A DNA stretch of 64,000 nucleotides from Nitrincola sp. (GTDB lineage Bacteria; Pseudomonadota; Gammaproteobacteria; Pseudomonadales; Balneatricaceae): the NCBI RefSeq assembly GCF_048264025.1, contig NZ_JBLXDN010000004.1, forward strand, positions 30,026 to 94,025, given 5' to 3'. Both the position numbers and the translations under genes were made by a program. The notes beneath the pieces were generated by a model that was given only the letters and a program-made list of their open reading frames with translations, was not told where the DNA came from and searched no databases. Positions 4,806 to 33,290 of the stretch are shown piece by piece (positions within the stretch are counted from its first letter, which is position 1; each line of letters opens with the position of its first letter).

Positions 4806-4832
4806 GTTGTGGAAGGTGAAGTTGAGTATTAA

Positions 4833-4854
4833 AGCGAGCTAACTCGCTGGAGGA
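4833..4854 (+). promoter_or_regulatory. Perfect 6-bp stem / 4-nt loop hairpin (AGCGAG-CTAA-CTCGCT) directly abutting the GGAGGA Shine-Dalgarno of the giant gene
   Basis: Read directly: 4833-4838 AGCGAG, 4839-4842 CTAA, 4843-4848 CTCGCT, 4849-4854 GGAGGA, ATG at 4861. No U-tract follows, so it is not an intrinsic terminator. Confidence 0.35.
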
Positions 4855-4860
4855 TTACAC

Positions 4861-7800
4861 ATGGGAAGCGCAGCACGCTATCTGCACAATGCGGCTGGAC
4901 AGTCCTGGAAGCATCGGGCCTTGCGGCAATGGCATGGCCTGATCAGGCGTTCGCTGGACACTCAGCGGGTTAATAGCCAGCGTCAAGCGACCACTGAGGT
5001 GGAGTTGCTTGAGCAGCGTTTTATGCTTTCCGGTGATCTGTTGGTGATACCACCCACCCCTCAGGATTCGCAGGAATCTGTGATCAATCTGCAGCACCAG
5101 GCAGAAGCCGATATGCTGGCGGATTTTTCACTTGGTGGCGTACAGCAGCAAAGCTTGATTGATGAGCTGATCTTCATTGATACGGCTGTTGAGCAGCCTG
5201 AATATCTGATAGAGCAAGCATTAGCCCAGCGTGGTGATGGCCAGGCCCGTGTTGAAGTGGTTTATCTGGATGCCGGTGCAGACGGTGTGCAGCAAATCAG
5301 CCAGTGGTTGTCGCAATATGCTGATTTGCAAGCGATCCATATTATTTCTCATGGCGAAGCCGCCAGTGTGCAGCTGGGCAACACCACACTTGATACGACC
5401 TCACTGGATGCTTATGCAGAAGTACTCAGTAGCTGGCAAACCGCTTTAGCTGAAGGCGCTGATCTGTTGTTTTATGGCTGCTCTGTGGCCGAGGGAGAGG
5501 CAGGTCAGGCTTTTGTTGAGCGTATTGCTGAACTCACTGGTGCGGATGTAGCGGCATCGGATGACATGACTGGTGCGGAGCAGTTGGGTGGTAATTGGAT
5601 CTTCGAATACACCACCGGGGTAATCGAAACCCAGGCATTATTCAGTGCCGGCCATACGGTTTACGATGCCTTACTGGCTGATCTGACATTTACGGATGAA
5701 TCAAAATCCGCCATATTGACTGCGCTGCAGAACCTGGACCAACTGGGTAACCAGGCACTCAATGATGCGTTATCTAATGCGGATATACCCGGGCTGAGTA
5801 ACACCAGTATCCTGAGCCTGTTGGACTTAGGTGGTGCCAATTTTGATTTGCATGCAAACGCCAATAACTATTTTGCCAGTGGCGGCCCACACACCCTCTC
5901 TGGGCTGGTCAGCTATCTCAACAATAATAGCGCTTTATTGCTTATTGACGGTATAGAAGCCACGCTGACAGTCGATGCCAGCAATCCAGCTATGCCAATC
6001 TATGGCTTGCGTCTGACAGCGGATCTACAGCGTAACTCGACACACACAGTAACACTGAATCCGGCTGGCTATACACTCGATGCTATCACAGCCGATGCTG
6101 TCACCCGGCTGAAACTGGCACTCGAAGCCGGTATTCGCTTGAGTACGGACCCGAGTGTTGACCCCGAGGGTTTTATCCGCGCAGATAAGCTGCAACTCAG
6201 TACGCAGATGTCCGGTGAAGGTGATTTTAGCCTGAATTTGGGTGCCGCGTTTACCTTGCAGGATCCAGACAATCTGGATAACAGTCGCCAGATCACCAAT
6301 AGCGAATATGCTGTTAGTCTGATTCAACGTCAGGTGACAGCTGAAGCTCAGGGGCGTTTTGCCTTAAGTGGTGCTACACAGCAGGCTGCATTTGGTGCTC
6401 AGGCCTATCTGGCGCTGCAGGGTATACTGAATGGCGACGCGCTGAGTTTCAATTTTTACCGTGATGCCAATCTAAGTGATGCAGCCATTCAGGCGCAACT
6501 GCAAACGTTGTTGGCGCACTGGGCGCAGTTGGCGGTACAGCTGGATCAGTTGCAAGCACTTTCTGTCGAGTTACCGCTGGTCGATCAGTCACTCCTGTCG
6601 CTGATGGTGACGGAAGATGGCCGCACTCTGGGTGATATTTTCCAGTTTGGTTACTATCTGCCGGGTGGCGGTTTTACCACTGTGTTGCAGCAATACCTCT
6701 CTCAGGGTGATGCCACCTACATGGGGTTGATGTTGGAGTTGCAGGATTACCTGCATGGCCGTGGGACTTATAGCAGTTTGCAGTCGCTGATTCCGGCCGA
6801 TGCCAGTGATTCCCTGTTCAACGTGACGGGAGGGCTTAATACGGCGGGTAACGAACTCGCTTTAGGCCTGGAGTTGGCACTAAACCGTGAGTTTCTGGCA
6901 CAGCTCAGCTTTGGTGATGCGCTTGCCAAGGTGGGTTTTGCCTGGGGTGATGGACAGGGAATAACCCTGAATGCTCTAATCGATCTCAAGTTTGATCACC
7001 GCATTACCACGTCTTCGGCCAGCTTTGACCTCAATGAACTTGCGTTACAGGTTAGTGCGCCTACTGGAACCTTCTATGCACCCGCTCTATTGGGTGCCTT
7101 GCCAGTCACTGCCAGTGGTGTGCTGACATTTGACTCTGGACGAGTCACTGTGACAGCCGTTGATGACGTTGTGTCAGCTGATACCTCAACTGCTGAGGTC
7201 AATGCTGCTCTGAGTATGACCCTTTCAGGTGATCTGTTTGGGGTGCCTCTGGAAACTCTGGCCGGTGGTGTTCCTGGGGTTGAGATCAGTTTTAATAATG
7301 GTGCGGCGACCTCTTGGACAGACATTGCCAACTATAACTCTGAGGTGACGCTGTCCCACTTTACTCAGTTGAGTGCATTGAGCAGTCTGGAACCCCAGCA
7401 GTTGATGGATATGCTGTCTGATGTTGTCCTGTACCTGGAATCCTTGCGTGATTCTGGTGAATTTGACGGTTTGCTCCCTTTCACTGAGGTGAATCTGGGG
7501 CAGGGGCTGGATTTCAGTCAGGGCCTGATGGCCTTGTTTAACGAGGGCCTGCAGGCAACCCGTCAGGAAATACTTGCGGGTCAGGCGGTATCACCACGTT
7601 TGACGGACAATCTGTCATTTGATTTACAGGTGCAAATGCCAGGGCAGTCAGAGCTGTCGGTATTGACCATTACACTGCTAGCCAGCGAAACCAGCAGCTT
7701 TACCCATATCAATCAACTCGCCAGCCTCATTGATCAGAAAATAGCGCAGGCCGCTAACGCTGTATTGGGCTGGCAATTGCTGGATAGTGATGTGCCGGTA

Positions 7801-10800
7801 ACAGCGCTGGTACCGGTGGCGGCAGTCACTGAGCTGATCAAAGGCGGCCTGTTACAAGCAGGTCGCTATAGCAACGCTCAGCAGCAGGTCAGGTTGCACA
7901 CCAGCGGGGGCGATTTCCGTATCCGTGTTGGGGATGGCAGTTGGTCTGCAGAGGTCTCCAGTTATAGCAGTGCGGCAGAATTGCAGCGTGTATTGGAGAA
8001 TCTGCCGGAGATTGGCAAGGGTAATGTGCAGGTCACAGGGGACGCACGTAACTGGCAGGTTACTTTTGTCGGTGCATTGTCGGGTCAGGAGGTCGCACCG
8101 CTGGAAGTGGAATTTGCTGCCAATGCCAAGGCCGGTGGTTTGTTAGAAGTCTCCGCACAGGATCTGGACCGCGTCGATGGGCTCACCTACGGGCGCCTGG
8201 TGATCTCTCAAACACAGCCAGGTACGTTTGAGAAATTGAATATTGCACCATCTGTAGGGATTCAATTTAGCGAAGAACAGGCCGCGGCATTTGATGTCGA
8301 TGAAGATACACCGGTGCAACCAGCGGTGTATCAGTTGCAGTTGATTCATGCGGCCGGTGGTAGTTTCAGCGTTAATTTCAGCTATGACGGACAGTCATTT
8401 GAGACTGAGACGATCAGTCTGGAGGGCGAGGGAACCTGGAGCGATCGGATTGCATTGGCCTTGAATAAGGCGATTAACGATGCCTACCGTGAGGATAATG
8501 CGGGGCATGTAGATCAGGAATATCTCACAGTAGAACTGGCTCCCTTGGGCACTACCAATGACGGTATCCAGTCATTCTATATTGCAGCGAATATTCTGGA
8601 GGTCAGCGCCGGAAAAACCTTGAGCGGCTTCTCGGCTGATATTACTGAGCTCCGTTCTCAACCCGGTGTACAGGTGTTCGTGACTACCCTACAAGAGGGT
8701 CGCGTGGGTACCTCTGCGGAAGGGCGGTTGGGTGAAGTTCAGCGTCTGACCTTGGCGAATGTTGCCGGTGGCAGTCTGCAGATGCTATTGAATCTGGCTG
8801 ATGAAGCACTGGAATCTGATGTCCTGAGTCTTACCACATCGGGTGAGTTGAAAACGGCCAATCAATTAGCGGCCGATCTTGCTTCCACGCTCTATCAGAT
8901 GCTGATTAAGGTCTATGCCGACCTGGATCCAGCTGATATTCAGGTGTCAGTTGTCGCGGGTCAGGGCTATACCTTCGATATCCGTTTTACCGGTCAATTG
9001 TCCGGCCAGGATATAAATACCCTGTCAATCAATAAAACCAGCATAGTCTCAGCATCGGATTTTACCACCAGCTATGCCGATCTTACCTTGGCTGGTTTTC
9101 AGGCGGCAGGCGAGTCCATGCAGACTCATTCACAGCCGGGATTCACTGATTGGCACGTGTTGATGGACCGTTTCCAGCACGCAACCAACAGCCTGTTGAA
9201 TAACACCCTGACAACTGAATTTGCCGAGTTCAGTGTCAATCCTCGTTTTGATCTGGCCAGCCAAACACTCTGGCTGGACCTGTTCGTAGGCTCAGGTATC
9301 CAGATCGATGCAGTTCAGTTGCTATTGGATGCTGAAGCGGGTGGACTAGAGGGGTTCAGTGTCGATGCCTGGATGGATATTACTCATGAAACCTTTTTCA
9401 ATGGATCATTGGGCTTTGACCTGAGTCAGCCACAGGCTATTTCACTCCTGGCTGTGGGGCCTGTGGTGGGCTCTGTGACTGGAACTCAGGCTGATCCTGT
9501 GCTTAACAACCAAACGCTGTCGCTAGGATTTAATGTGGATGGACGCCAGTTTAATCTGGCTGACATACTGGCTGCTCAACCCACTGAAAATGGATTCGCC
9601 AGTGCGGCAGGCGCACAAGTATCGGTGACCTCGCAGACTGATTATATTAACAGCAGCGTCAATGCATTTATTCGTGTTAATGGCAGCGTGCTGGAAAACA
9701 GTGAAATCAGTGCCGTAGGCCGTGCGCCCGGCCTGGCGCTAAAGGTTGGTAGTGATGAGTATGTTAGTGTCATTAATGGGCTGGATGCTGGAGCAACCAT
9801 TGAGGTCGTTATCCAGATCAATGGTGTTGAGCGGTCGTTATTAGTTGATTCGACTATCACTGCCAATGCTCTCAGAGACAGCATCAATAGTGCCTTTAAT
9901 AGTGCATTTGACGCCACCCTGAACGGTGATCGGCTGGTGTCCATTCTGAATGCGGAGCTGGCCGCAATTGCCGGCACTGGACCTCTGTCAGGCTATGATA
10001 ATCTGGCTGGTGCACTGTATTTCGAGTTGACTGCAGAAGGGCAGTTGCAACTCCGCACCTTTGCCGCGGTTAACCAGATTATTCTGACACAGCCGAATAC
10101 GGCGGAGGGTGTTGTTGGACTGGAGGCTCTAGGAATCCAAATGGGTGTTGAGAACGCCATCCGACCCGCACCTGATTCTAACTATACACTCCCGTCTGAT
10201 GGACGACTGACAGAAGATGCTGCATTCCAGCTGCGCCTCGATAATGCCACAGCTATTGATATTACCCTTCCAGCTTCACTGACGGTTGATAACACTTCGT
10301 TGGCAGATCTGATGGCGGATATTCAGCAGGTACTGAATTCAATTGATATTTCGGCACATGCTTATCTGGGTACGCTAGACGGCGGGTTGGGCTATACCCA
10401 CCTGGGTCAGTTGATCCGCGCAAATTTGCTTTCCACTGAAATCAATACCGGGCTGGACCTCAGCTTTGGAAACGAAGCAGACGCTGATCAGGATATAGAA
10501 CATAGCTACTACCTGGAGCTGCAGGTTCTTGGCAATAAAATTGCGCGTGCCCAGATTGAGATGGCGGATGAGGGCAATATTGGTAACCGTGAACTCGGTC
10601 TGACGGCCAGACAATCGGTAAAAACAGCCGCTGTTTCGATGCAACTGCAAAATGCCATGATAGGTGGCCAGCTCAGTGCCGCAATGCAGGCCGGTGGTTC
10701 GGCTTCGGGTCAGCAAGGGTTGCTGGAGCTGCTTTTTGGCGATATCCAGATTGCCGATGGCGCCTATCAGGGTGCATTTGCGTACTATCTGGTTGATACC

Positions 10801-13800
10801 CTCAACAGCAACGACACCAGCCTGGATTTTAATGCCGCCCTCGACAGTGTGCTGGTACAGGGTGCACAGCTGGGGTTGACGGCAGATACCCAGGTTCGCG
10901 ATGAGACTACATTGCTCCTTACTCCGTTCAACCAGCAGGGTCAGACGGTACATGATGTTGGTCTGACGATCAGTTTCGATGCTTTTACACTGGGTAATCA
11001 GGCCTATGAGGCCTTTGATTTGGCCGTAGTACTACGCCAGTTGGCAACACAGAATAACACCTCGGTTGCTGATCTGGCGGCCGATCTGAATGCCGCTATT
11101 CATGCAGCGCTGAGTGCACATTTTGAAGGGGAGACAAACCCTTTTGATGGTCATGTGTTTGTGGTCGTTGATGATACCGGGCGCTTTGAAAAATTGCGTT
11201 TTGTGACTCTTGCACATGGTGAGGGTGCGACCCGAGTTGAACAGCAAAAAGTTCAGATGACACTGCGCAATCGGTTATTGCTGGATGAGTACAGTGCGGA
11301 GGGGTTGGTCTGGTCGGAGTCGACACAGGCGGCAATCACTCTGGGTGCTATTCAGGTCGGTTTACCCGAAGGGTTCAAGGATCAGTTCGGTAATACCCTG
11401 AGTGCTCCTGATATTAGCGAGTCATTGGTGCTGAATTTAGCGAACGCCGCTGAGGTCTTGAGTCTACCGGATATTCTGGCTGACATTGATGGCGATCTGC
11501 CTGATTTTGGACTCTATCAAGGCCTGGCTGAGCAGAGCTGGGCTGGGGTGCTGGATGACCTGACGCAACTGGCCTCTTTGTTGGGTAATCTGGCGAACAT
11601 GAGCGAATTAAGCTTGTTTGGTCAGAAATTACCGGTACTGAACAAGTCATTGCACGAGTTACTTAATCTTCAAGGTCACTTCAACCAGGTTTATGACGAG
11701 CTGAGTCAGATAGATCAGGCCAGCTTTCGTTCGTTACAGACCTTGCTGGAGTCAGCCTTTGGCCTGGAAGCCAATACGATTGACTACTACCTGGATACAG
11801 ACCGCCAAGCGCTGGTAATCAATATCCCCTTTACGCTGGCGTTTGAATCACTGGAGCAGTTCAATCTGCTGCTGGCTGACGCACGGCTTATGCAGATGTT
11901 TTCGGCTGCAGATCAAACTTTATTAAAAGAGTTGCTCGGTCCTACCCTGAGTATTACCGATGCAAATCAGGAAAGTTTGTTGCGCTTGTTCCGTGAAGTA
12001 ACCTTCAATCTGGAATTAGGGCTGGATCTGGCGCGGGAAGACGAGGGGCAGCCTAATTCTAATCTTGGGCGCTTGTTCCTGTTTAATGCGCGAGACCAGG
12101 GCGGAACGTCGATGCAGTTCCGGCTGTTCAATGATACCGATCAGACGCTGAATTTCACCTCGCCCGTTACGCTATATGAATTGCAGGTTGATGGTGGCAA
12201 GGTCGAGCTGGACCTGGAGGGCGGCTATCAGCTAAACAGCGATGGTGGTCGTCTCTATTTGGGTGAATATGCTGCGCATATCGTTGCCTCCATGTTACCC
12301 GTGCAGGTACAAGCCACGGATGAAAATGGTCAACCACTGTTTGAAGACGATGGCACGACGCCGGTGATGGTGAGTTCAGCCAATACAGATGCCAGCAATG
12401 CTGTCAAAGCGATAAAACAGGGAGCCTTCGACCTGTCCTTGACTGGTGATATTGAAGTCAGCTTACCCCTGAGTATCGTGGTTTCCGACCATTTGGCAGA
12501 CCTTACCGCTGAAGAGTTACCGATATTTGTCAATCCTATGCCTATAGGCACGGCAGAAATTGCTATTCGGGATCTGAATAAACTGCTGAGTAAAATGCTG
12601 GGTGATAGTCTCAGTTTAGCCACCCAGGTGGCTGAAGCGGCCAGGCCGCCACTGGTGAACAATGGCGGTGGCGATTTGAACCAGGAGGGTGTGCCTGGTG
12701 ATACTCAGGACGAGTCTGATTTGCCCGGTGTGGATCTGACTCCGGATAACCCGCTGACCGGTGGCGAAGGTCAATATACCCAGCCCAGTGATGATATTCA
12801 GGTGCCGGTCTTTTCTGCACCTGAGATACAACCTGGCAGTGACGGGTTTGATCTGAGTCTGATACTGCCTAACCTCGGTGGATGGCAGGAGACCTTCCTT
12901 CAGGTGCTACAGAATGCCGGTCTGGGTGAAGATTTTTGTGATCCAGATGGTGTCAGACTGAAAAGTGCCCCCTTACTTTTCTTGTTGAGTGATCCGGCTT
13001 TTGTGGTGGAAACGCTAGATACGGTATTGAGTGCTTTCCAGAGTGTGATCGACACCCTGACATCCGGCGTGGTTGGGCCAATCATCGGTGCTGAAGCCTT
13101 GCAGGAAATGACCCAGTTTGTTGCCGGTCTTCGCGAAGGCTTTATCAGCAGTTTAACTAATGCGTTGAACTCGGTAATTTTCAATTATGGCAGTCTCGAC
13201 AATGCACTGCGCATGGTGCTCTTTGATCTGCTCTACCATCCGGATAATCCATATCTGAACTTCCTGCGCGATTACAATGGCGACGGCATCATTACCCCAG
13301 ATGATATTGTGCTTGAGTACGTAGCCCAGGATGCCGACCAGTACACCTTTGTGAATATCCCTGAGCTGACAACGCTACTTGAAGCTGAACAGCTTTGGGC
13401 AATTCGTAACCTGACTGAGGGCGGACAACGTACTGGGTGGGTGGCATCAGGTGAGCGACTGCAACAGGCTGATGCTGATGGAAATCTGGTATTCCGTGAC
13501 GCTACCGGTAACGCTTATATTCGCATGCCCCAGTTGGATGAGATGGACCAGCAGCGCGAGGATGAAGACGGTAATTTGCTGTTTGAATACTATGCCGCTG
13601 TGCGTGTCAATGTAGCTTCCGAAGGTGAAACACCCGTCTACGAAATCCAGCCGGTCGTAGGTGCCGAGGCTGTTGAATTAGATGCAGACAAGCTCAAACC
13701 CTGCTATTTGGGAATTGCTGGTCAGGTGATTGTTGATCTGACTTATCAGGATTTGTTTGGCGGATTCTGGTATCGCGAGAATATGTCCGGTGACCCAGAC

Positions 13801-16800
13801 TTCCTGACTGATGATCAGGCCGAAGCGATCGATGCCTTCCTGGCATCAGATGCGTTTCTGAGTCAGTTCCCTGGCTGGGACGGTGAGTTGACGGCTGATG
13901 TCATTGAGGTGATCCGTGAAGAGTTTATTAATGACTCCGACCTGCGCGAACTGAAATTTGTCAGCTACTCAGACGAGCAGGTGAACGCCTCCAAACAACT
14001 GGTGTTTGCGCAGAGCAGCGCTGTCCAGTTCCGCATGAACTTGGGTCAAACCATCGAGTTACCCGATGCGTCAGTGGCCTTTGATGTCGGCGTGCCTGGC
14101 CTGAACCTGGAGATAGACGGCGGATTGGCTGTTAATCTGGACTGGGATTTTTTCCTTGGGTTTGGTCTGGATGTCAATCAGGGTTTTTATCTGGTGGCAA
14201 ATATGCCAGGCCATGCAGGTATCGGCCAGGTAACTGAATTTGCTGAAGACAGTCAGGAGTTGTATGGCAAAGCCTGGGTAGCTACCGGTTTTGCTGATGC
14301 AGGTATTTTGCGTGATTCAGCCGGTTTTCCTGTGGATGCCGATGGTAACCGCATTCTCAACGATGAGGGCTATCCTCTCACTGTTGAGGAGGAGGCCCTC
14401 TATGCAGATCAACTCGTGTCGATGGATGAAGCTATCAGCAATCTCTGGTCATTGGATGATGGTGTTGAAGTATCTGAGATACAGTTCCAGATTAGCGCCT
14501 TTCTGGCACCTTCACCGAATGAGACTAATTTCTATGAGCAGCGTGTAGTTGAAGAATATTTCAATCTTGAAACCAAGCAGATTGAGAAGCGCTTCGTCAA
14601 GAACGGTAGTGAATATGTTTATGAAGTAGTTTACACCGACCAGCCCAAACTGGATGCTGAAGGCAATACACTCTATGAGCTGGCCTGGGAATATGAAACC
14701 GAGGTGGTGGATGGTCGTGAACAGATAAAATACGAAGCCTTGCTCAGTGCGGCCGGTCATTTTGTCTACCGTCGTCAGACTGGAAATGGGCAATACGAGT
14801 ATAAAGAAGAAAGCAGCCGTCTTACCAATACTGGTGGCTGGGAGCTGATGCTGCAAACGGACCGCTTCGGTGATCCGATTCCGATCTATACACTGGATGG
14901 CGGTGGTCAGCGTATCGCCGTGATGGTGGATGGCGAACAGGCATTAATGACTGATCGTTTTGGTCGCTATGTGCCTCAATATAAAGAATTGCGTGCTCCG
15001 GCGAGTCTGCAAGCCGAATTGCTGTTTATGAATGGCACCATCACGGATAATTATTCAGGCTGGATTAAAGATAATGAAGGTCGTGTCTGGGGTGATCGTG
15101 AAGCCTGGCAGGATGACACCTTTGGTACCATCTGGTACGACGATCAGTCCAACTTTGATGCCTGGGGTGTCAGCGACACGCTGTTTGATGGCAAGACCGG
15201 CTATGAAGGTTCCAGAACGCAGTTCCTGGCCAGATTTGAAATAGATCTTACCGATAATGCATCACTCGGCTTCAGCTCAGGAGACACTCTGGGATTGGAT
15301 GAAGGTGTGGCTGGGGAAGTGGACGATATACTCGATGGCACCTTTGGTGGCAGCGATGGTCGTCTGACATACAATGTGTTGACCACCAATGACCTGGGTG
15401 ATCTGTTTGAGACACATTGGGAAGCCTATGCACAGATTAACCTGCAGATGCAGCTTGGTGTGGGTTTTGGTGATGCGATTCAACCGGACCTGTTGCCGGC
15501 CATCGAGGGTAACTTCCAGCTTACCTGGTCAGCGGAGAAAGAAGACCCAGATCAGCCGGAATGGCAGCAGTGGATGGATCGTTTTGAGGAATTGACCTCC
15601 AGCGACTACTACTCCCTGTTTGCCGATCAGCCGGGTGTATGGATGACTGATATCGCGTTGGATATGGGGACTTTCTTCTCCAACTTCCTGGAGCCAGTGA
15701 TCGATGTGATTTCAGTGGTTACAGATCCGTTTGCACCAGTCATTGAGCAACTGACCAAGCCGATACCCGGTATTTCTGACCTGATGCGTAAGAACTACTC
15801 GCTGGTGGATATGGCGGTAGACTTCTCCAAAATCAGCGGTGGCAATGCCAAAATAGATTTTATTGTCTCGCTGATCAGCCTGTTTGATACCATCAACAGC
15901 CTCAAAGCCGTGATTGATGCCGGTGGTTCGACAGTCAAGCTGCCGGTGTTTGATGTGTTGTTACTGGCAGGCAATAGTCATTCAGAGTTTGCTCTGGATA
16001 ATGTCCTCAACTACATCGGTGACGTAGCAGATTTCAGTGCCGTTGCCAAAGCGATCCCTGGCGAAACCACCATTTCGCTGGATCAAGGCATGAATGACTT
16101 CTTTGCTGCGCTGGAAAAACCTGCCAATGCGCTGCAGTTCCCGATTATCGATAATCCGGGTGATGCCGTACTGGGTCTGTTGTTTGGTAAACCGGTTGAC
16201 CTGGTAACTTATACTCCGGCTAATCTGGAAGTCGGTGTTGGCTTTCGCAAAAGCTTCCCTGTCTATCCACCGCTGTTTGTCGGTGTAGGGGGGGAGATCA
16301 AGCTGGAGGCTTTTATTACGCTGGGATTCGATACCTATGGTGTGATCAAGTTCCTCGACAGCAAGAATGTTGTGGATGTCATGGATGGATTCTACATCAG
16401 TGACAATATTGACTCCCGAGGGGTAGACCAGCCAGAAGTGATGCTGTCTGCACAACTGGTTGCCTTTGCCGAATTGAATGCAGTAGTCGCACGTGGTGGT
16501 GTGGAAGGAGGAATACGTTTTGAAGGTACGCTGGATCTGTGCGATCCGGACCAGGATGGCAAGGTGCGTGGTTCTGAAATCTACGCAATAATTGCTAAAA
16601 ATCCAGCCGCACTGGTTAGCTTAGATATGCGTGCCACTGCCTTTATCCGCGCTTATCTGGACGTTTTGGCACTGATCAAGTACGTTCGTGTGTGGGAATA
16701 TACCTTCATGGACGTGACGCTGTTTGAGTGGTCACTGGATCTTTGTAATCAGGATCCAGTTCTGGCTTCTATGGATGGTAGCGTGCTGGTGTTGAATACC

Positions 16801-19800
16801 GGTTCCGGTTTTGCGGGTGTCGATGGTTATCCGAAAATCAGTTTTGATGCTTCAGACCGCTTGCGTAAGAGCACCGAAGATGGTGATGAACATTACACTT
16901 TGAACCTGTCTGGTAGCAATATCGAAATAGTAGCGGTATTGCCGAATGGTCAGGAATACACCCAGACCTATCGTCGCTCCACCGCAGTACATGGCTTTAG
17001 TGGAGCCGGAACGGATGTGTTTGATGCGCGCGGTCTTGGCAATATCCCAGTCTATTTTGTCGCGGGTAGTGGTGATAACACCTTCTATGCCAGTAATGCT
17101 GCCAGCGGTAATGTGCTGATTGGTGGTACCCAGGGCATTGCGCGCCTTTACGGAGGCAGTGGTGAGGATATGCTCATTGCTCGGGGTGGGCAAACCGTCA
17201 TGGAAGGTAAGGCCGGGGATGATACCTACCGTTTCCTCAACGAGTGGGGCCGCGTCACTATCAGTGACAACCAAGGCCGTAATATTCTTGATTTCAGTGC
17301 TCAGAAACGCAGTGTGACCTTTGATGATGCAGCGTTGAATGCTGTGCAAGGACGCAATGTTGTGCAATGGCAGGCAAGCACCCAGATTAATCTGGTTAAA
17401 GGTGGTCAGGCCAATGACTGGCTGAACTTCGCCGGTAATGCCCAGAACCTGATGATTACTCTGACCGGGTTAAATGCCGGTTGGGTAACCAGCTCTACCA
17501 GTGGCATGGGGCAGTCCAATTTACCGGCCAATGGCACTCAGCAAGGTGCTGCTGAAACGTCTGGACAAGGCTTTACCTTTGTCGGTTTCGAAAATGTACT
17601 CGGCGGTAAAGGCAGCGACGTATTTCGAGTTCAGGCTGGGGCATCGGTTACAGGTAGTCTGCGTGGCGATACCGGCATGGATAACGTCAATGCCCGTAAC
17701 ACGATCGACTTCTCAGAGTTTACCCAAGGTGTTCAAGTTGATCAGACCGGCACCAGCCGTTTTTCTGGCACTGGTAATATCAGTATTCGTGGTTTCCACA
17801 ATATGTTTGGTGGTGCTGGCAATGATGTACTGATCGGCAACAGCTACAACAATCTGATTGTCGGCAATGGTGGCAGTGATAATCTCAGTGCCATTGGCGG
17901 ACATAATCTACTGATCGCTGATAGCTTTCGGACCTACCGCAATGGCGATAGCAGCGTGTCCGCTATTCAAGTGGGTGACTATACCAGCCTGCAACAGGCT
18001 GGGCTCGCTGGCGGTCATGGCAATGATGGTCGGATGTGGTTGTGGAAAGACAAGACCCTGGAGTCCATCGGTCTGGGCAATGGCAGCCAGGTACTGCGAG
18101 GTGCCGGAGGCAATGACATATTGATGGGATCATTGGGAAGTGATCGAATCCTTTCCGGGGAAGGTAATAATACCATTATGGCCGACCTTGGCCTGATTCG
18201 GGTGGATTTCAATTATAACCTGCCGCTCTATCTGGAAAGCTTCGGGGCAGCCGGTGGCGGCAATGACAGTATCTTCCTCGGCGGTGGTAACAATATTGTT
18301 ATAGCCGGGAATGGCAACGACAGTATTACTGCAGCCGATCGCCCGGAAAGCCTGAATATTATCCTGGGTGATAATGGTCGCATTGCCTTCAAAACTGACC
18401 AACGCACCTTTGCTGTGAATTCGCAGGGTTTTCGTATGCTGGACTATATTGAAGCCCCCGTGAATGAGATGGGGGGTGCCGGGGGTAACAATCTGATCCA
18501 GATGGGCAGTGGCTCGGCGATCATTTTCGGCGGAGCCGGTAATGATGTCATCAGTATGGCAGCATCCAGTTCTACGGCCCAGAATGTGCGTTTTATTGCC
18601 GGTGATCATGCCCGCATCGAAACGGATGGCAATGGCGGCGTGGTGCTGTTCAAAACGTTGGATATCGAAAACAGCAGCGGTGGTGATGACTTCATCCGTA
18701 TCGGTGATGGCGCTGATTCAGCACTGCGTCATCTAGGAAGTAATTTTATCCTCGGCGGCATGGGCTCAGACACGATTCTTATCTCGGCACATTATGATGA
18801 CAATGGGCAACTGATTCGTGGCCTGGCTCAGAGTGAAGATGTGATTATCGGAGATAATGGCGAAATTCGCTGGACAGTGTCCGGTAATGGTAAACCTAAT
18901 CTATTGCAGAGCGTTCGTACCCTTGAAGATGACAAGGGTGGCGATGATGTCATCATAACTGGCAATGCGGGTAAGGTGATTTTGGGTGGTTTTGGCTCTG
19001 ATGAGATCGCTGCACTGGACGGTATCAATATTGTCTTCGGTGACAATGCTGAACTGCAATATGACGCGGTTGCTGTCAATGGCGTGCTCCGTCTGGCGCA
19101 GTCGAAAAATGAAGTGCTGGGCGGTAACGACACCATTACGCTGGGTGAGGGTTATAAGCTGGTTAGCGGTGGTATCGGTGATGATGTGATTTCAATCGAT
19201 GCGCAAGGCACCCCAGAGGCCTTTGGTGTGGAGTGGGATACCGATGGCGGATTCCTTGCTGGTGTAACGGGGATCTCCGCTGTTATTGCCGGGTTTGGCG
19301 GGGTGTTAACAGTACCCGCTCAGGAAGCACGGGGCCGAACCGGTCGCTATATCGCCGGTGATAACCTGCGAGCCACCTTTGATCAGCGTGGCGGTTTAAC
19401 TAACCTGGCGACAACCGACCAGATCGCAGCGACCGGTGGTGATGATCAAATCACCACCGGTCGACAGAATACCAGTGCTTATTTGGGCCTAAACGTGGTG
19501 TTCGGTGGTATGGGGGGGGATCAGATTCTGGTGCAGTCTGGCAGTATGGCTGAGAACGTTATATTTGGTGATAACGGTCAGTATGATCGTCAGGCACTCA
19601 GCTATCAGATGCTGTCACTCACCAGTAGCATTCCCAACTCCGGTGGCAGTGACACAATACAGGTAGGATCTGGCGATAACATTCTGATCGGCGGCTTTGG
19701 CAATGATACTCTGCGCCTAGACTCTGATGATCAACATGCCTTGGTTGCGGCGCATTTCAACCGCAGCATTGTGCTGGGCGATTCAGGTGAAGTTGTCTAT

Positions 19801-22800
19801 TCCGGTGGTGCACTGCAGCGCATCGAAAGCCTGGGACACAATGCTGGGGGCCGTGATAGCGTTACCATCGGCGATGGTGACGTTACCTTCGTTGGGGGCT
19901 TTGGCGGTGATACGCTGAACATTAACTCTAACCGCACGGCCTTCCGTATTCTGGCGGGCGACAATGCACGTATTATTTTTTCACCGGTTCAGGATATTCG
20001 TGAACAGGCCGCCAGCCTGACGCGTATCATCACTCTGGATCAGGTGTCAGCCACCGGTGGTAATGATGTGATGAACATCGGCATTTCCGGAGCTTCCACT
20101 GGCGATATGGGTGAAGTCATCGCACTGGGTGGTGTGGGTTCTGATGCGATCCGTGTGTCTGGTGAACGCGCTCGGGTAACCTTGATTGGTGACAATGGTG
20201 AGGTGCAGCGTGTGGCTGGGCACCAGGGACATCGCTTGCTGGTTAGCAGTCTGGATCCAACACTCGGTGCGGGGGGGACCTTGCAGACTGTAGCCGGTGA
20301 CTATGTCATTATCGGTGGTTCTGGAAGCGATAATATTCGTACTGGTAAAGGTACAGGGGTCGTATTTGGGGACCATGGACGCATCAGCTATTCAGCATCG
20401 GGTTACCTGAGCTCTTTGACCAGTTTGTCGATTGCACAGGGTGGTAATGACACCATCGAGCTGGGTGTCGGTAGTGGTATCGATGGTCATAAATATGTTA
20501 TCGGTGGCGTTGGCTCTGACAACATTACCCTAAGTTCTAACCGCGGTTCAGCTGCAGACCCTATCGAGCGCGCTATTGCCGGTGACAACGTCAGTATGGC
20601 CTTTGATGTCTTGGGACGAATGACCAGTTTCACTACACTCGACAGTGAGTTGGCAACCGGCGGTAACGACCAGATTACCCTGAGTATGTCAGGTGATCGT
20701 GAGAGTGAAGTGATCACGGATTACAATGTTGTTGCCGGTGGTATGGGTGATGACGATATCAATATACAAGGGTCAACACGCAGTAGTGATGTGGTTTCAG
20801 GTGATAACCTGGATTATCGCCGTAGCATCAGTGTTAGCGGCGAACGCCAACATCTGTTTGCTGGAGTGCTAGTGCCAACAGCCGGCGGTAATGACATTAT
20901 TCGTGTTGGCGCTGGTGAAAAGATCCTGTTCGGTGGACAAGGGAATGATCGCATTACCGCTAATACCGAGTCTGGTGATCGTACCGTTATGTTCGGCGAT
21001 GCTGGTAATGCGGTGTTTAACAGCAACGGCAATGGTGAGTTGATCCAGTTACTTTCAACCTCTGCGCAGTTGGGTGGTCAGGATAACCTGACGGTAACCG
21101 GTGGTGAACTGTTCCTGTTTGCTGGACTGGGCCGTGACACTGTGACGGTGACCGGAAATGATGAATCAACACGTATAATCAGTGCGGCCAGTGCTCAGGT
21201 TAACTTTGATCAGGGCGTTGCAGTACTGCTGCAAAGTGCAGGGCCTGATCAGGTTGATGCGGGCAGTGCTGACACCCATTTCATTCTGCCCAACTCAGGT
21301 ACCAATTTTGTTATTGGGGGGGCTGGTTTTGATACGCTTACAGGCAGTCAGGGCGATCAGCATCGACTTTTACCTGGCAGCGGTTCGATCAACCTGCTGA
21401 CTAAAGTAGTCAGTGTGGTGGTGTTAGGTGATGAGGGCGAACTTGGTTTCACTTTAGAGGGTGAGTATGCCACTGGGCTGCCTGATGAGAACGGCGTTTA
21501 TTTGAAACGTCCAGGACGTGATTTTGTTCGTGCTGCCCCGGTGGTGGACCCGGATGATCCAGATCCTGCTGACCCGGATGAGCCGACTGATTTCACCTAT
21601 TTTGGTGCGGGCAGTGTGACCGAGGACCTGGCTAACGAAATTTCCGGACGGATCGCCTATCCTGCACTGGAGGGTGGTTTTGCCACCTTTGATGCTCAGC
21701 AAAATAGCCAGGCTGGACTGTATGGCTACCTCACTGTGTTGGAAAATGGTGCCTGGCGTTACAACCTGGCCCATGACGCGCAAGGATTAAATGCTGACTT
21801 GAATGCTCGGGTACAGGCGTTGACTGATGGTGATCAGCGTACTGAGTATTTCACCGTAACGACCACCGATGGTAGTACTACCACGGTCATCATCACAGTG
21901 AATGGTCGTACAGATACCCCGGCAGATGTGAATGCCCAGATACAGGAAGATGCTGAGCAACTGAGTATTTCTGGTCAGGTAGTCGATACAAATGATCCGC
22001 AACAGCGCACGCTGTTCCAGCCGTTTGAGTCCGTGGGAACTTTTGGTGTTCTAGTGCTCCATGCTGATGGACGCTGGGAGTACCAGTTGGATAATGACAA
22101 AGCCCAGTCACTACGTGAGGGTGAACTGGGAATAGAGCTGTTCCTGGTACAAACCCTGGATGGAGCAACCAGCCAAATTGCCATCACTGTCGAAGGTGTC
22201 AATGATGCGGCTGAAATTCAAGGCAGTTCGACTGCCGCACTGGTAGAAGATGCGCTGGATGCCGAACGTGAACTGCGGGTGGAAGGTCAACTTCGTGTTG
22301 TGGACCCGGATACAGGTGAAGATCGCTTTGATTTGCAACGAATCGAGGCGGCTCAGGGCGTGCTTGGACAACTGCAACTCAGTGCTGAGGGCGACTGGGT
22401 TTACACTCTGCACAATGGTGATATTCAGTATCTGCATGCAGGCGAAACACTGATTGAAACTTTCACCGTTTACTCACTGGATGGCACCGCATCAGAGGTG
22501 ATACAGATTACCTTGACCGGGGTAAATAACCCTGCTCAGATTGCCGGCCAGTTCAGTGGACAAGTGGTTGAAAAACAACAACTCAGTGCCTCAGGCAGCC
22601 TGACTGTCATGGATGCTGATCAAGATCAGTCGTCTTTCCAGCCAGCCAGCTACCACAGTGCTTATGGCCAATTGCAGATCAATGCTCAAGGCCAGTGGGG
22701 CTATCAGTTGCAGGCTGACAGTCAAGCACTGCGTGATCTGAATCGTGATCAGGTGGTTTATGACCGTTTCACACTGAATACACTGGATGGCACGACCTTC

Positions 22801-23427
22801 ATCGTGGAGGTTCGGATCACGGGTGAAACGGGTGTACGAGAAGCCGGTCAAGACAGTGATGCTCTATACCCGCCAAGTGCCATTGATTGGGGGCAGCTGT
22901 CTCCCTCAAATTCGGTGAAAGCCTCCTACAGTCATACTAGCGATGTTGATACTGATCGTGATGGCAAAGACGATGATGATCTGCCAGATGTTCAAATCAG
23001 TCTACTCACACTGGGTCAGCAAGGCTTTATGCAACTCAAGCCGCTGGCTCCCCCTGTAACGGGGGTACAGTTGCGTACCGATCTTTCCAAAGGGCTGCTG
23101 GAGCAGGGTTTACAGATAGAGTCGCTGCCCCTGGCAAACACTGATGCCGATGAAGCCGTCGATAATGATGAACAAGACGCTGTCGAGCAAGCTGATCAGG
23201 TCCTGGATTTACTGGATCCAGGTTTATCAGCCGAGGGTGAGTCTTTCAACCCTACTGGTTCAGAGATACCTGATGAAGAGGATCAAGAGCTCGATGCAAC
23301 CGAAGAAGCAGAAGAAACCCAAGAGATAAATGAAGACGCTGCCAGTTTGCAAGCGTTGCAGACCCTGGCACAGACCGCCGCGTTAACAACCCGTCCTGGA
23401 CGTATTCTCTGGGGTTGGAACGGATGA
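4861..23427 (+). CDS. Giant 6188-aa secreted-adhesin-like protein (LEPR-XLL-like motif, DUF4347-like domain, long mostly non-repetitive body, RTX-like repeats, ~70-aa super-repeats, 4 VCBS-type repeats, acidic tail)
   Basis: Uninterrupted 18.6-kb ORF with GGAGGA 7 nt upstream of the ATG. No hydrophobic signal peptide. Only about 5 Cys seen by eye. Gly/Asp-rich Ca-binding-type repeats and VCBS-like repeats are typical of type-1-secreted giant adhesins. Confidence 0.9.
   Translation: [6188 protein letters not shown]
5008..5028 (+). other. LEPR-XLL-like N-terminal motif (LEQRFML) of the giant protein
   Basis: [12 protein letters not shown] at residues ~48-59 resembles the LEPRxLL(S/F)(A/G)D signature found at the N-termini of very large repetitive bacterial proteins. 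Confidence 0.5.
5155..5640 (+). other. DUF4347-like domain of the giant protein
   Basis: [14 protein letters not shown] ... [48 protein letters not shown] ... [38 protein letters not shown] ... GGNWIFEY matches my memory of the DUF4347 pattern. Confidence 0.7.
17060..18190 (+). repeat. RTX-like Gly/Asp nonapeptide-type repeat blocks (protein level)
   Basis: [85 protein letters not shown] and [29 protein letters not shown] all fit GGxGxDxUx-like units. Confidence 0.7.
18250..21215 (+). repeat. About 14 tandem ~60-75-aa super-repeats (GGxDxI ... GGxGxDxI ... GDNGxI/F), protein level
   Basis: Recurring units start with [120 protein letters not shown] and [10 protein letters not shown]. Each is followed by a second GGxGxD box and a GDN(G/A)-x-(I/V/F) strand. 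Confidence 0.7.
21610..22827 (+). repeat. Four tandem ~100-aa VCBS-type repeats (protein level)
   Basis: Each unit ends with a strand plus a V/TxG-x-N/T-D/N-x-A/P boundary: [102 protein letters not shown]. Each has an internal G-x-W-x-Y motif (GAWRYNL, GRWEYQL, GDWVYTL, GQWGYQL). Confidence 0.75.
22840..23424 (+). other. Acidic, low-complexity C-terminal tail of the giant protein
   Basis: [15 protein letters not shown] ... [24 protein letters not shown] ... [29 protein letters not shown]. Confidence 0.7.
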
Positions 23428-25535
23428 AATCAGACACAATGAACCGAGTATTTTCCATGCAGTTCAGAAAAACACCTCGACAGTACACGACTGGGTACCT
23501 GACCCAGGCGATCAGAATGGCCCTAATAGGAGTGGTATGTGTGCCCATGCATACCGCCGTTCAAGCCAGCGATGTTAGTAGTCAGGTTACCAGCGTGTTC
23601 TATGATCCGGATACAGCTGTCGATCAGTTGCAACCCAACCGCACGGATATGCGCATTCCCCAGCGCATGCAGGGTCGTGTGGTGGTACGCGCGCCCCGTG
23701 CTGTTCGAGTGGATCCGGTGTTAACTGCACCGGTTGAAAATCTGGAGCAGCGGCGTTTCTCACTGGATGCTGTGCGCATGATTGACTCGCAGTTATTTGA
23801 TGAGCAGGAGTTAATGGCAGTAATGACTCCCTGGACTGAGCGCCAGTTGTCCTTCGCCGAGTTTCAATTGGCAGCGCTGACACTCCTGGAACACTTGCGT
23901 GAGCATGGCCATCCTGATGCGGTGTTACGTTTTTCTCAACTTCAGTTTCTTGAAAATCAGCAAGTGGCTGTGGCGATTGACGGTCTAACACCGACAGATA
24001 GCTATCAGGACGGTTCACCACGTATCCAGGTAGCTGGATTTGACGTGCAGGGCGTGACGCTGCTGGATAATGCTGTGGTTCAGTCTCACCTTGCCCCTTG
24101 GACGGGGCGGGCACTTAGCGTTGATGAATTGAGTGAAGCGGTTGAATCAGTTGCTCAGTTGCTGCGTGATCAGGGTTATGCCTTGGCGCAGGCCTGGTTG
24201 CCACCGCAGGAAATTACTGATGGCCAGGTTAAAATTGAGGTGCTGGAAGGGGTCGTAGACGGCGAATCCGGTCATCAAGGTATTACTGTAGCAGATACTC
24301 AACGTATCAAGTCTGAGGTGATTGCGGCTTATCTGGCGGAAGGTGTAGTGGCAGATCAGCCACTTAACATCAATGCGTTGGAGCGTCAGGTACGCCTGCT
24401 GAACGAAATGCCGGGCATTCGCAGTGTTCAGACAGACCTGGCTCCTGGGTCTGTAGCGGGTACCACACAGGTCATTGCTGAGGTTGAAGAAGACGCTCTC
24501 CTGACCTCGGCCGTCACGCTGGATAATTATGGCAGCAAATTCTCTGGTGAAGAGCGTCTGGGGTTAAACCTGAACCTGAACAGTCCGATGGGCTATGGTG
24601 AGCAGTTTTTTGTCAATTATACTGGTTCTGAAGGAACCAATAGCTACAAGCTGGGCGTGCATGCCCCTGTGGGTTACTCCGGTTTGCGCATGGGGGCATC
24701 CTATGCCGCAATGGATGTAAAGCTCAACGAGGGTAGTATTGCGCCGCTTAATCAGAGCAGTGACTCGGAGTCTTTCTCCCTATTTGCCAATTATCCACTG
24801 GCCCGTAGTGCGGCACGCAATATCGATCTGTTTGCCAGCCTGGATCATAAATCCTATCAAAACAACTACCCGGATTTTGGTTTTTTTGACAATCAGCGTG
24901 ATATTACCAGCCTGACAGTCGGTGCCAGTGGTAACCAGATAGACCGCTATCAAGGACGAACAGGTTGGGGTGTTTCCTTGACTCAGGGCGACTTGTCTTT
25001 GAAGGGCAGTGGTGACTCAAGCACTGAAGGCAGTTTCAGCAAGGGTAACTTCAATATTTCCAGACTGCAGGCTTTGCCAGCCGATCAATGGTTTGTTTAT
25101 GCCAGTATGAGTGGGCAGCTAGCCAGTGGCAATCTTGATAGTGCCGAAAAATTTCAGCTAGGCGGACCGATGGGTGTACGCGCCTGGCCAGTAGGTGAAG
25201 CGATTGGTGATCATGGCTGGTTGGCCAATCTGGAACTGCGTCGCAATCTGGGTAATCACGGCGATGCTAATTTCGAAGCCTTTGGTTTTTATGATATCGG
25301 TGGCGTTACCCAGTATGCCAACTCAGCGGATGCTCCAGCCTATTCAGGTCCAAACACCTATGAACTTGGTGGCTATGGTGTCGGGCTAAGCATGACTTAC
25401 AGCGAAACAGGCAATGTACGTCTGGTGTATGCCCAGAAAGACCGTAGTAACCCCAACCCCACAGCCAGTGGCACAGACAGTGATGGCACTGATCAGTCAG
25501 GACGTATCTGGCTGATTGGTACCCTGTTATTCTGA
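23424..25535 (+). CDS. TpsB (ShlB/FhaC/HecB-family) two-partner-secretion outer-membrane transporter with POTRA domains
   Basis: ATG 23424 overlaps the giant-gene stop (ATGA, 23424-23427); a TTG at 23415 is the alternative start. Signal-like MALIGVVCVPMHTAVQA. POTRA-like blocks (FDVQGVTLLDNAVVQSHLAPWTGRALSVDELSEAVESVAQLLRDQGYALAQAWLPPQEITDGQVKIEVLEG). The beta-barrel ends in an aromatic residue (...IWLIGTLLF). Confidence 0.9.
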   Translation: MKSDTMNRVFSMQFRKTPRQYTTGYLTQAIRMALIGVVCVPMHTAVQASDVSSQVTSVFYDPDTAVDQLQPNRTDMRIPQRMQGRVVVRAPRAVRVDPVLTAPVENLEQRRFSLDAVRMIDSQLFDEQELMAVMTPWTERQLSFAEFQLAALTLLEHLREHGHPDAVLRFSQLQFLENQQVAVAIDGLTPTDSYQDGSPRIQVAGFDVQGVTLLDNAVVQSHLAPWTGRALSVDELSEAVESVAQLLRDQGYALAQAWLPPQEITDGQVKIEVLEGVVDGESGHQGITVADTQRIKSEVIAAYLAEGVVADQPLNINALERQVRLLNEMPGIRSVQTDLAPGSVAGTTQVIAEVEEDALLTSAVTLDNYGSKFSGEERLGLNLNLNSPMGYGEQFFVNYTGSEGTNSYKLGVHAPVGYSGLRMGASYAAMDVKLNEGSIAPLNQSSDSESFSLFANYPLARSAARNIDLFASLDHKSYQNNYPDFGFFDNQRDITSLTVGASGNQIDRYQGRTGWGVSLTQGDLSLKGSGDSSTEGSFSKGNFNISRLQALPADQWFVYASMSGQLASGNLDSAEKFQLGGPMGVRAWPVGEAIGDHGWLANLELRRNLGNHGDANFEAFGFYDIGGVTQYANSADAPAYSGPNTYELGGYGVGLSMTYSETGNVRLVYAQKDRSNPNPTASGTDSDGTDQSGRIWLIGTLLF

Positions 25536-32987: not shown

Positions 32988-33290
32988 ATGAGTGATGAAA
33001 ACGAACTGAAATCAGCCGCACAAGCTAACCCTGCCCAGTCGCCCAAAATCCACTGGGACGACAGTGAAATGCAGACTAACTATTCCAATGTCTGCAATGT
33101 CATGGGTACGCGTGAGGAGATCATGTTGCTGTTCGGTTCCAATCAGGCCTGGCAAACGGGTCAGACCGAAGTGAAGGTTAAATTATCCAATCGTATTCTG
33201 CTGACACCCCATGCGGCGAAACGCCTCAAGGTATTGCTGGAAATGGGCCTGAAAGAATATGAAACCAGATTCGGTGAAGTCAAACTCTGA
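32988..33290 (+). CDS. DUF3467-family small protein (100 aa)
   Basis: AGAGGA sits 7 nt upstream of ATG 32988. YSNVCNVMGTREEIMLLFG ... RILLTPHAAKRLKVLLEMGLKEYETRFGEV matches the DUF3467 pattern as I remember it. The longer ORF from 32919 would overlap the tpsA 3' end and was not used. Confidence 0.75.
   Translation: MSDENELKSAAQANPAQSPKIHWDDSEMQTNYSNVCNVMGTREEIMLLFGSNQAWQTGQTEVKVKLSNRILLTPHAAKRLKVLLEMGLKEYETRFGEVKL

Follow-up and report, generated by a model that had tools for sequence, protein, structure and literature searches.

We analysed a 64,000-nucleotide stretch of a Nitrincola sp. genome (contig NZ_JBLXDN010000004.1, positions 30,026 to 94,025 of the forward strand; hereafter the window), which encodes a giant protein of 6188 amino acids (aa). 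The giant gene lies between the gene of a TolC-family outer-membrane factor and those of a two-partner secretion (TPS) pair, TpsB and TpsA. Further downstream, beyond a small DUF3467 gene, is a compact block of four genes (33259-39950), the core block, encoding a GAF-HlyD adaptor, an M50/S2P-like metalloprotease, a SecA-like ATPase and a short HlyD-family adaptor (Table 1). Every gene from 80 to 42899 lies on one strand. The giant carries an N-terminal LEPR-XLL motif followed by a DUF4347 domain, and the block is repeatedly linked to LEPR-XLL proteins, in three gene orders (types A, B and C) and in several proteobacterial classes.

Table 1. Features of the giant gene, the four-gene block and the neighbouring genes (window positions; strand in brackets)
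Feature	Position	Residues	Remarks
SBP/PAS histidine kinase	80..2014 (+)		possible regulator; start as listed, may be cut at window edge
AMIN-domain TolC-family outer-membrane factor	2175..4805 (+)	876 aa	signal peptide; Pfam OEP 1.2e-56, AMIN; directly upstream of giant
Giant open reading frame (ORF)	4861..23427 (+)	6188 aa	ATG start, stop TGA 23425-23427, uninterrupted
LEPR-XLL leader motif	4999..5061 (+)	47-67	NCBIfam NF012209, 26.2 bits against cut-off 17
DUF4347 domain	5167..5652 (+)	103-264	Pfam PF14252, E 9.5e-54, 182 bits against gathering threshold 24.6
Non-repetitive middle region	5653..15597 (+)	265-3579	~3300 aa, colinear conservation in close family only
~90-aa module, three copies	7873..9066 (+)	1005-1095, 1154-1266, 1291-1402	iterated hidden Markov model (HMM)
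~400-aa helix and long beta-hairpin domain	15598..16860 (+)	3580-4000	hydrophobic-patch stretch
Gly-rich RTX-like repeat region	16978..21540 (+)	~4040-5560	Pfam HemolysinCabind, self-repeats
Four VCBS/Cadherin_4/BIg extenders of ~100 aa	21598..22830 (+)	~5580-5990	TIGR01965 224 bits, 4 stretches; Cadherin_4
Acidic low-complexity C-terminal tail	22831..23424 (+)	5991-6188	from sequence
TpsB (POTRA_2 and ShlB)	23415..25535 (+)		in-frame TTG 23415 as alternative start; ATG 23424 overlaps giant stop (ATGA)
TpsA	25550..32965 (+)	2471 aa	signal peptide and TPS domain; TpsB-TpsA pair adjoins core block in type A and B loci
DUF3467 small protein	32988..33290 (+)	~100 aa	Pfam 5.9e-25, 32 orthologues
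GAF-HlyD adaptor	33259..35082 (+)		cytoplasmic GAF, one transmembrane helix (aa 339-357), periplasmic adaptor part
PqqD (RRE)-fused M50/S2P-like polytopic metalloprotease	35022..37238 (+)	738 aa	HELGH, NPLLRFDG, ~270-aa C-terminal extension
Truncated SecA-like ATPase	37242..39221 (+)	659 aa	NBD1, PPXD, NBD2
Short periplasmic HlyD-family adaptor	39225..39950 (+)	241 aa	signal peptide; family match
SapC-family protein	40009..40752 (+)		Pfam 1e-74
IalB-like protein	40968..41462 (+)		possibly associated; family match
EAL-domain protein	41567..42355 (+)		possible cyclic di-GMP link; also in L006

The giant protein

The giant gene is genuine and conserved, neither an assembly artefact nor a pseudogene, because P0241 (6157 aa) matches it end to end, in one high-scoring segment pair that spans all 6188 residues at 81% identity, and other homologues of 6483-7701 aa are colinear with it across 54-84% of the query at 25-48% identity. 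A reading of this DNA made from the sequence alone (the sequence-only reading) had named interruption of the ORF in independent assemblies as the mark of an artefact or pseudogene; in P0241 the frame is intact. The first ~4000 residues, largely devoid of repeats, are no peculiarity of this one gene, their colinear architecture being common to a family of proteins of 6-8 thousand residues. The homologues were retrieved by searching 1.84 billion cluster representatives exhaustively. A word-indexed protein database in which no listed entry exceeded ~2100 aa missed every homologue of the giant interior, and its negatives are unreliable for giants: residues 1-1200 yielded 332 matches there, all at the DUF4347 end only, and residues 3560-4010 yielded none. 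A section of the giant interior (residues 453-1124) has a further match in the giant encoded by an Oceanospirillales metagenome-assembled genome (MAG). The Nitrincola protein is a new member of the annotated but unstudied LEPR-XLL/DUF4347 class of probable surface or secreted proteins.

The leader includes the sequence LEQRFMLSG (residues 50-58), preceded by a basic stretch, and the LEPR-XLL motif occurs only once in the six-frame translation of the window. Among 121 sequences, comprising that of the window and 120 DUF4347 homologues, the strict pattern is present in 62, and looser variants were recognized by eye in many others. In the DUF4347 domain, His164 (nt 5350-5352) and Cys207 (nt 5479-5481), a putative catalytic dyad, are invariant in all 121 sequences. 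An AlphaFold2 model built with 30 sequences (predicted local distance difference test score, pLDDT, 91) places the two residues at the ends of adjacent strands (E65-71 and E105-114, respectively), the arrangement characteristic of clan CD peptidases. The top Foldseek match of the model in the PDB is Tce1 (9qpe_G, E 1.2e-5, TM-score 0.53-0.57), itself a DUF4347 protein; the next ones are caspases, legumain and Csx29, at modest TM-scores of 0.35-0.45 and interspersed with flavodoxin-like folds. Tce1 (PA0256) has been described as a putative cysteine protease with a dyad that aligns with the one in the TcdB protease domain (PMC13323088). The DUF4347 domain of the giant is predicted, from the model, to adopt an alpha/beta fold that may resemble that of caspases and of the cysteine protease domains (CPD) of toxins. 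We know of no DUF4347 domain for which proteolytic activity has been demonstrated.

The protein is rich in Leu (11.4%), Gly (10.7%), Ala (9.5%) and Asp (8.2%). It had been characterized as acidic, with about five cysteines and no signal peptide, and all of this holds: D+E account for 13.6% of the residues versus 4.9% for K+R, there are exactly five cysteines (positions 207, 2693, 2948, 3894 and 3962), and a Kyte-Doolittle scan detected neither a hydrophobic N-terminal segment nor a convincing transmembrane helix. Internal repeats were sought by tiled BLASTP comparison of the giant with itself (E<1e-4), tiling being needed because whole-protein self-BLAST returned the identity match alone. Self-similarity is confined to residues ~4400-5500 and ~5600-6000 (nt ~18060-22860), with none in residues 1-4400, and RTX-like sequence begins at nt ~16980, in good agreement with the original placement of the tandem repeats in the last third of the gene (nt ~17060-22830) and with the description of the preceding part as largely non-repetitive. 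Self-comparison had been recommended at both levels; it revealed repeats in the protein, and at the DNA level Tandem Repeats Finder identified no tandem array within the giant gene. The loose recurring modules mentioned for residues ~270-4000 are real though few, being represented by the ~90-aa module with its three copies in the giant. The adjacent TpsA contains a fourth (residues 1111-1195, nt 28880-29134), which hints, at the level of sequence, at a binding or assembly function that the two exoproteins might share.

The middle region is colinear with P0242, P0244 and P0245 at 28-37% identity. No Pfam or NCBIfam model matches residues 265-3579, a family profile of residues 291-1000 matches nothing in the PDB, and PDB sequence searches with residues 1-4400 returned weak RTX matches alone. 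The adjoining stretch at nt ~15600-16800, singled out in the sequence-only reading for its hydrophobic patches, turned out to be a discrete conserved domain (residues 3580-4000) with 1738 cluster representatives at E<=1e-3. Among the 150 matches listed, nearly all fall within proteins several thousand residues long (median 3.4k, up to 7.9k aa); the domain is kept in L026, L029 and L032, and in the Limnobacter and Roseateles giants it immediately precedes the RTX-like region. Its AlphaFold2 model (pLDDT 74) comprises long N-terminal helices and 8-10 strands of 15-20 residues, and has no significant Foldseek match. We dropped a fold assignment, given that the list consisted of pore-state gasdermin/MACPF hairpins and small outer-membrane barrels at TM-scores of 0.1-0.39. 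Windowed structure prediction combined with Foldseek, a check proposed at the outset, gave matches for DUF4347 and no significant one for this domain. We infer that the non-repetitive region and the helix/beta-hairpin domain together form the functional passenger of the giant; its activity can only be guessed at and might involve cell-cell or surface interaction.

The RTX-like region is matched by HemolysinCabind in six stretches (23.7 bits versus a cut-off of 23), so that RTX nonapeptides are found near the C-terminus; it also matches the RTX blocks of serralysin and CyaA, and is conserved in type A giants. The VCBS/BIg extenders align with PDB entry 6xi1, a Ca2+-dependent extender of MhLap, a Marinobacter adhesin, at E 5.8e-82. 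The acidic tail has no tblastn match in 71 loci and is not conserved even in close relatives. Taken together, the RTX-like repeats and VCBS/BIg extenders have the hallmarks of a protein that probably folds outside the cell upon binding Ca2+.

The four-gene block and its linkage to LEPR-XLL proteins

The metalloprotease of the block combines a PqqD-type RRE (recognition element of ribosomally synthesized and post-translationally modified peptides, RiPPs) with a polytopic core of 6-7 hydrophobic segments that contains the HExxH and NxxPxxxxDG motifs. Of 64 loci, 63 retain these motifs, and the protein as a whole scores below the curated cut-offs (19 bits versus 27.2 in Pfam; 161 versus 300 for daptide_HExxH), which puts it outside the curated subfamilies. 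A HlyD-like domain in its C-terminal part was considered and set aside, the HlyD_3 match being sub-threshold (E 0.021) and at most a hint. The SecA-like protein aligns to residues ~23-604 of Bacillus subtilis SecA, scores ~400 bits against solved SecA structures and retains intact Walker A, DEVD and arginine-finger motifs. It consists of the two nucleotide-binding domains (NBD1 and NBD2) and the preprotein cross-linking domain (PPXD). The helical wing domain (HWD), two-helix finger and C-terminal tail are missing, and the protein remains below every NCBIfam SecA/SecA2 cut-off (best 569.9 versus 862). The family is large. Across loci, Walker A is conserved in 54 of 55 proteins and DEVD in all 55, none of which exceeds ~661 aa, so that the truncation is universal in these 55 loci. 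The topology predicted for the block components would fit an envelope-spanning assembly; NCBIfam offers no system-specific models for them. The listed starts of the GAF-HlyD and M50 genes overlap the preceding genes by 32 nt (33259-33290) and 61 nt (35022-35082), respectively. The true starts of both probably lie downstream of those listed, because the M50 orthologues start ~14-20 residues later.

With the M50 protein as the query, a scan of one genome per species yielded 66 loci, distributed among Gamma-, Beta- and Alphaproteobacteria, Magnetococcales and Myxococcota, with one more source being a Syntrophobacter MAG. Where the flank suffices, the M50 gene is accompanied by those for GAF-HlyD (55 of 57 loci), the SecA-like protein (54 of 56) and the short HlyD (49 of 53), and a giant and/or TpsBA is present in 29 of the 32 loci with both flanks. 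The genes occur in three orders. In type A (Betaproteobacteria, Magnetococcales), the order is giant-DUF3467-core-TpsB-TpsA; in type B (Oceanospirillales, including the window), it is TolC-giant-TpsB-TpsA-DUF3467-core-SapC; and in type C (Methylococcales, Methylophagaceae, Thiotrichaceae), the core is directly followed by a LEPR/DUF4347 ORF of ~1000 to >2200 aa, mostly cut by the contig end. In the Oceanospirillales MAG, Limnobacter and Magnetococcus contexts, the block adjoins an 11,395-aa ORF, an 11,635-aa ORF or TpsA. The giant of the Oceanospirillales MAG (L001, 10001-24855), which has pentapeptide repeats after DUF4347, is called as two ORFs of 1618 and 9085 aa, reflecting either a frameshift, an assembly break or a true split. 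Two type C loci, L039 (6312-8054) and L047 (6431-8186), carry two paralogous ORFs of ~280-290 aa immediately upstream of GAF-HlyD.

The linkage was also followed from the side of the cargo, using relatives picked for long contigs only. All four LEPR-bearing DUF4347 proteins (P0107, P0113, P0029 and P0082) adjoin an M50/HlyD block, without a SecA-like gene at the P0113 locus, compared with neither of the two LEPR-less cyanobacterial DUF4347 proteins (P0119 and P0108). The called genes of the related contexts that we inspected include no ABC exporter, save for one ABC gene ~8 kb from the LEPR-less P0119. At one locus, L073, the genes follow each other as short HlyD, GAF-HlyD, M50, a 1943-aa LEPR/DUF4347 cargo and an OEP gene.

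The TolC-family gene upstream of the giant exceeds the TIGR01844 cut-off (299.5 versus 225). It directly precedes the giant also in the Oceanospirillales MAG (L001) and in Marinobacterium sediminicola (L002), that is, in three genera together with the window. In all three, the protein has the same ~870-aa form, which in Nitrincola includes a ~450-aa N-terminal extension with AMIN (2175-3540). AMIN modules, which associate with peptidoglycan, also occur in PilQ and AmiC. As for inner-membrane exporters, the statement that no type I secretion system (T1SS) ABC transporter is nearby stands: the sole ABC_membrane/ABC_tran pair in the window (55301-58704), considered as a hidden T1SS, was rejected, both proteins being identified as CydD and CydC by NCBIfam cut-offs.

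TpsB/TpsA, DUF3467, SapC and IalB appear to be accessory components, confined to some lineages. DUF3467 is near-invariant in Gamma- and Betaproteobacteria and Magnetococcales (WDDSxMQTTYANVCNVxGTREE...NPYAAKRL) and is not found in type C loci. The possibility that it is a SecB-like chaperone was discarded, with no PDB sequence match and an hhalign probability of 0.5% against Escherichia coli SecB (sequence entered by hand). The IalB-family gene, which follows SapC in the window, is located directly upstream of AMIN-TolC in M. sediminicola (L002, 6821-7324). The EAL gene is followed in the window by one for a DUF4442 protein. Besides the histidine kinase and the EAL protein of the window, histidine kinase matches lie near the block in L003 and L067, with a GGDEF regulator in the former; in L074 and L077, genes for hybrid histidine kinases with Hpt immediately follow the cargo, and L077 also encodes two GGDEF-EAL regulators. 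Because histidine kinases and cyclic di-GMP enzymes recur and the adaptor bears a cytoplasmic GAF domain, secretion by the block is suggested to be regulated.

Proposed export route and alternatives

To our knowledge, the export of proteins of 5,000-30,000 residues across two bacterial membranes is poorly understood. Unfolded passage through a TolC-type duct had been suggested for the giant from its composition; the extracellular-type domains, the missing Sec signal and the adjacent TolC-family gene are consistent with this suggestion, which, however, overlooked the leader and DUF4347. We lean, with modest conviction, towards the view that the giant is a protein of the LEPR-XLL/DUF4347 class exported in a leader-dependent, TolC-coupled fashion by the block, with the SecA-like protein as the putative motor. 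The missing energiser of its export is most likely the GAF-HlyD/M50/SecA-like/HlyD block, a candidate identified by comparative genomics, because the block co-occurs with such giants across phyla. In the proposed route, the cytoplasmic RRE of the M50 protein would recognize the LEPR-XLL leader, which the M50 active site would then remove. The SecA-like motor, which comprises the ATPase core and preprotein clamp without the SecY-engaging parts, would push the unfolded chain into an inner-membrane complex, and the two HlyD-type adaptors would connect this complex to the AMIN-TolC duct, allowing export in one step. Outside the cell, Ca2+ would fold the RTX-like and VCBS/BIg regions, and DUF4347 may autoprocess or release the passenger. 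We have moderate to good confidence in the functional linkage of cargo and machine, and lower confidence in the step-by-step mechanism.

Several considerations weigh against this proposal. The evidence for linkage is genomic throughout, and RRE-leader recognition and leader cleavage are put forward by analogy. Three loci (L045, L049 and L060) have no cargo within 10 kb, nor any LEPR-only cargo within their flanks, and the cargo-side control is small (four versus two proteins). In L056, L057 and L073, the M50 block has no adjacent SecA-like gene, so the motor would be either encoded elsewhere or dispensable there. Furthermore, M50/S2P proteins are known to us as proteases and not as protein-conducting channels. 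Export by a T1SS, which proceeds from the C-terminus, is classically marked by RTX-like repeats near that end of the protein, and it is possible that an ABC exporter is encoded outside the 64-kb window.

The strongest alternative, which we nonetheless regard as unlikely, is that the giant is a conventional T1SS substrate, an RTX adhesin similar to LapA or MpIBP. A HlyB-type ABC transporter with its gene outside the window would then export it, C-terminus leading, in concert with the TolC-family protein described here, and the role of the block would be limited to processing or quality control of the N-terminus, or the block would act on some other substrate. The RTX-like repeats and BIg/VCBS domains near the C-terminus, the acidic, Cys-poor composition and the TolC gene next to the giant all fit such a scenario, and a sap-like T1SS is also what the authors of the preprint on Chlorochromatium propose for its LEPRxLL giants (bioRxiv 10.64898/2026.03.19.712371). 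However, no HlyB-type ABC gene is present in the window, and none is among the called genes of the related contexts inspected, apart from the ABC gene near P0119. The conserved element is N-terminal, and the C-terminal 200 aa are not conserved in close relatives, an argument tempered by the fact that C-terminal T1SS signals are poorly conserved and lack a reliable sequence signature. Finally, adjacency in three gene orders would be hard to explain if the block were unrelated to the giant.

Similarly, the block might be dedicated to maturation and export of a RiPP or bacteriocin-like peptide, the giant being nearby through shared regulation or island structure and not as its cargo. RiPP pathways typically feature PqqD-type RRE domains and HExxH intramembrane proteases, daptide and epipeptide proteases (both below cut-off) are the top NCBIfam matches of the M50 protein, and HlyD adaptors accompany bacteriocin exporters. 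This explanation appears improbable, given that the block has no conserved small precursor-like gene and no conserved modifying enzyme. The near-invariant DUF3467, missing from type C loci, is not precursor-like, and a preprotein-clamp ATPase would have no obvious role in the export of a small peptide. The LEPR-XLL giant is the only class of gene that tracks the block through its three rearranged orders.

Still less probable is a role for the two-partner system, with the giant as its substrate or partner and TpsB as the way across the outer membrane. The overlap between the giant stop and the tpsB start, correctly pointed out in the sequence-only reading (ATG 23424-23426, TGA 23425-23427), suggests translational coupling, the TpsB/TpsA genes are conserved beside the system in type A and B loci, and TpsA shares the ~90-aa module with the giant. 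Yet the overlap does not make the giant a TpsB substrate, because a TPS domain (like a Sec signal peptide) is missing from the latter, the next gene encodes a canonical TpsA with both, and tpsB is missing from the related type C loci and from L072, L073, L074 and L077, all of which have cargo and core. Least probable of all, the giant, which has no classical signal and for which export in this organism is deduced from sequence, might stay unexported as a scaffold of the cytoplasm or periplasm, or be a relic with rare expression, at odds with its domains typical of extracellular Ca2+-dependent proteins, its intact ORF with 81% conservation over 6188 residues, the linkage to genes for outer-membrane and periplasmic adaptor proteins, and the detection of related LEPRxLL giants outside the producer cell that is reported in the Chlorochromatium preprint (bioRxiv 10.64898/2026.03.19.712371).

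Returning to leader-dependent export by the block, we regard the latter as, at a minimum, a novel variant of TolC-coupled tripartite export, and it may constitute a secretion system of a new kind. More tentatively, and falling somewhat short of what we would call probable, the window might encode a complete, unrecognized diderm secretion system, in which the RRE-S2P-like protein and the truncated SecA-like ATPase replace the ABC transporter of the T1SS and are coupled through two HlyD-type adaptors to AMIN-TolC. Such a system would export LEPR-XLL proteins of ~2,000 to >11,000 residues leader first, and would also serve the giants of the Chlorochromatium symbiosis and of magnetotactic bacteria. 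If linkage reflects function, both the signal (LEPR-XLL) and the machine (GAF-HlyD, RRE-M50, SecA-like, HlyD and TolC) can be named, and cultured hosts, namely, Nitrincola, Marinobacterium, Zoogloea, Roseateles and Aquabacterium, would offer tractable models. The SecA-like protein would then be a SecA paralogue acting apart from SecYEG, TolC-coupled tripartite systems would gain a fourth kind of engine, and an autoprocessing role could be tested for DUF4347, a domain so far known only from a type VI secretion system effector.

Relation to known systems

The RTX adhesins exported by T1SS (LapA, MpIBP, SiiE and MhLap) share with the giant the large size, acidity, few cysteines, RTX-type repeats and BIg/VCBS extenders, and likewise have a TolC-family partner; the folded N-terminal domain of the giant could act as a plug. 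The giant differs from them in that no HlyB-type ABC gene is linked to it in the window and in that conservation centres on an N-terminal leader, not on a signal at the C-terminus. Furthermore, whereas the repeat adhesins of the LapA/SiiE/BapA type are built from dozens of near-identical Ig-like repeats, the giant has only four VCBS units, and family scans turned up neither a LapA-type retention module nor LapG or LapD genes. There is also no match to the MARTX toxin family (RTX_toxin, 36.8 bits versus a cut-off of 1000), the CPD-like domain is N-terminal, and rtxBDE genes are missing. The combination of a Sec signal peptide and a TPS domain that characterizes TpsA proteins is found in the neighbouring 2471-aa protein and not in the giant. 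The predicted DUF4347 fold would belong to the same alpha/beta class as those of Tce1 and the clan CD proteases (TcdB/MARTX CPD, caspases), in which the His and the Cys follow successive strands. In the giant, however, the domain is an N-terminal module of a very large protein, in contrast to Tce1, which is a free effector, and to the CPD, which is an internal toxin domain.

Among the components of the block, the SecA-like protein has NBD1, PPXD and NBD2 in common with SecA and SecA2, without the full SecA architecture, and its gene is accompanied by those for HlyD adaptors and an M50 protease, not by SecY2 or glycosylation genes. In the full-text literature, we found no description of this system, although most subscription papers were outside the search and an earlier description may exist; a 2021 Chemical Reviews article on tripartite systems mentions neither component in such a role. 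The closest functional parallel that we can draw is with exporters of the colicin V type (CvaAB-TolC), in which an exporter-borne protease recognizes and cuts a short N-terminal leader, with a HlyD-type adaptor and TolC providing the rest of a single-step path. In place of the C39 protease and ABC ATPase of these exporters, the proposed system would have an RRE-fused M50 protein and a soluble SecA-like motor, as well as two adaptors, and its cargo measures thousands of residues rather than tens.

As for the cargo, the LEPRxLL giants Cag_663 and Cag_665 of Chlorobium chlorochromatii (20-37k aa) are reported to be exported and passed on to the partner cell of 'Chlorochromatium aggregatum' while lacking known transport signals, and are proposed to be substrates of a sap-like T1SS composed of SapC, TolC and an unlinked HlyD (bioRxiv 10.64898/2026.03.19.712371). 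The same text mentions a 'recently acquired secA' in the Chl. chlorochromatii genome, tying neither this gene nor an M50 protease to export (bioRxiv 10.64898/2026.03.19.712371). The Chlorobium proteins are larger than the giant of the window, and DUF4347 does not appear in the available text on them. Likened by description rather than by sequence, they nevertheless resemble it in the N-terminal LEPRxLL motif, the giant size, the Ca2+-binding, beta-rich C-terminal parts and the presence of SapC and TolC genes in the neighbourhood.

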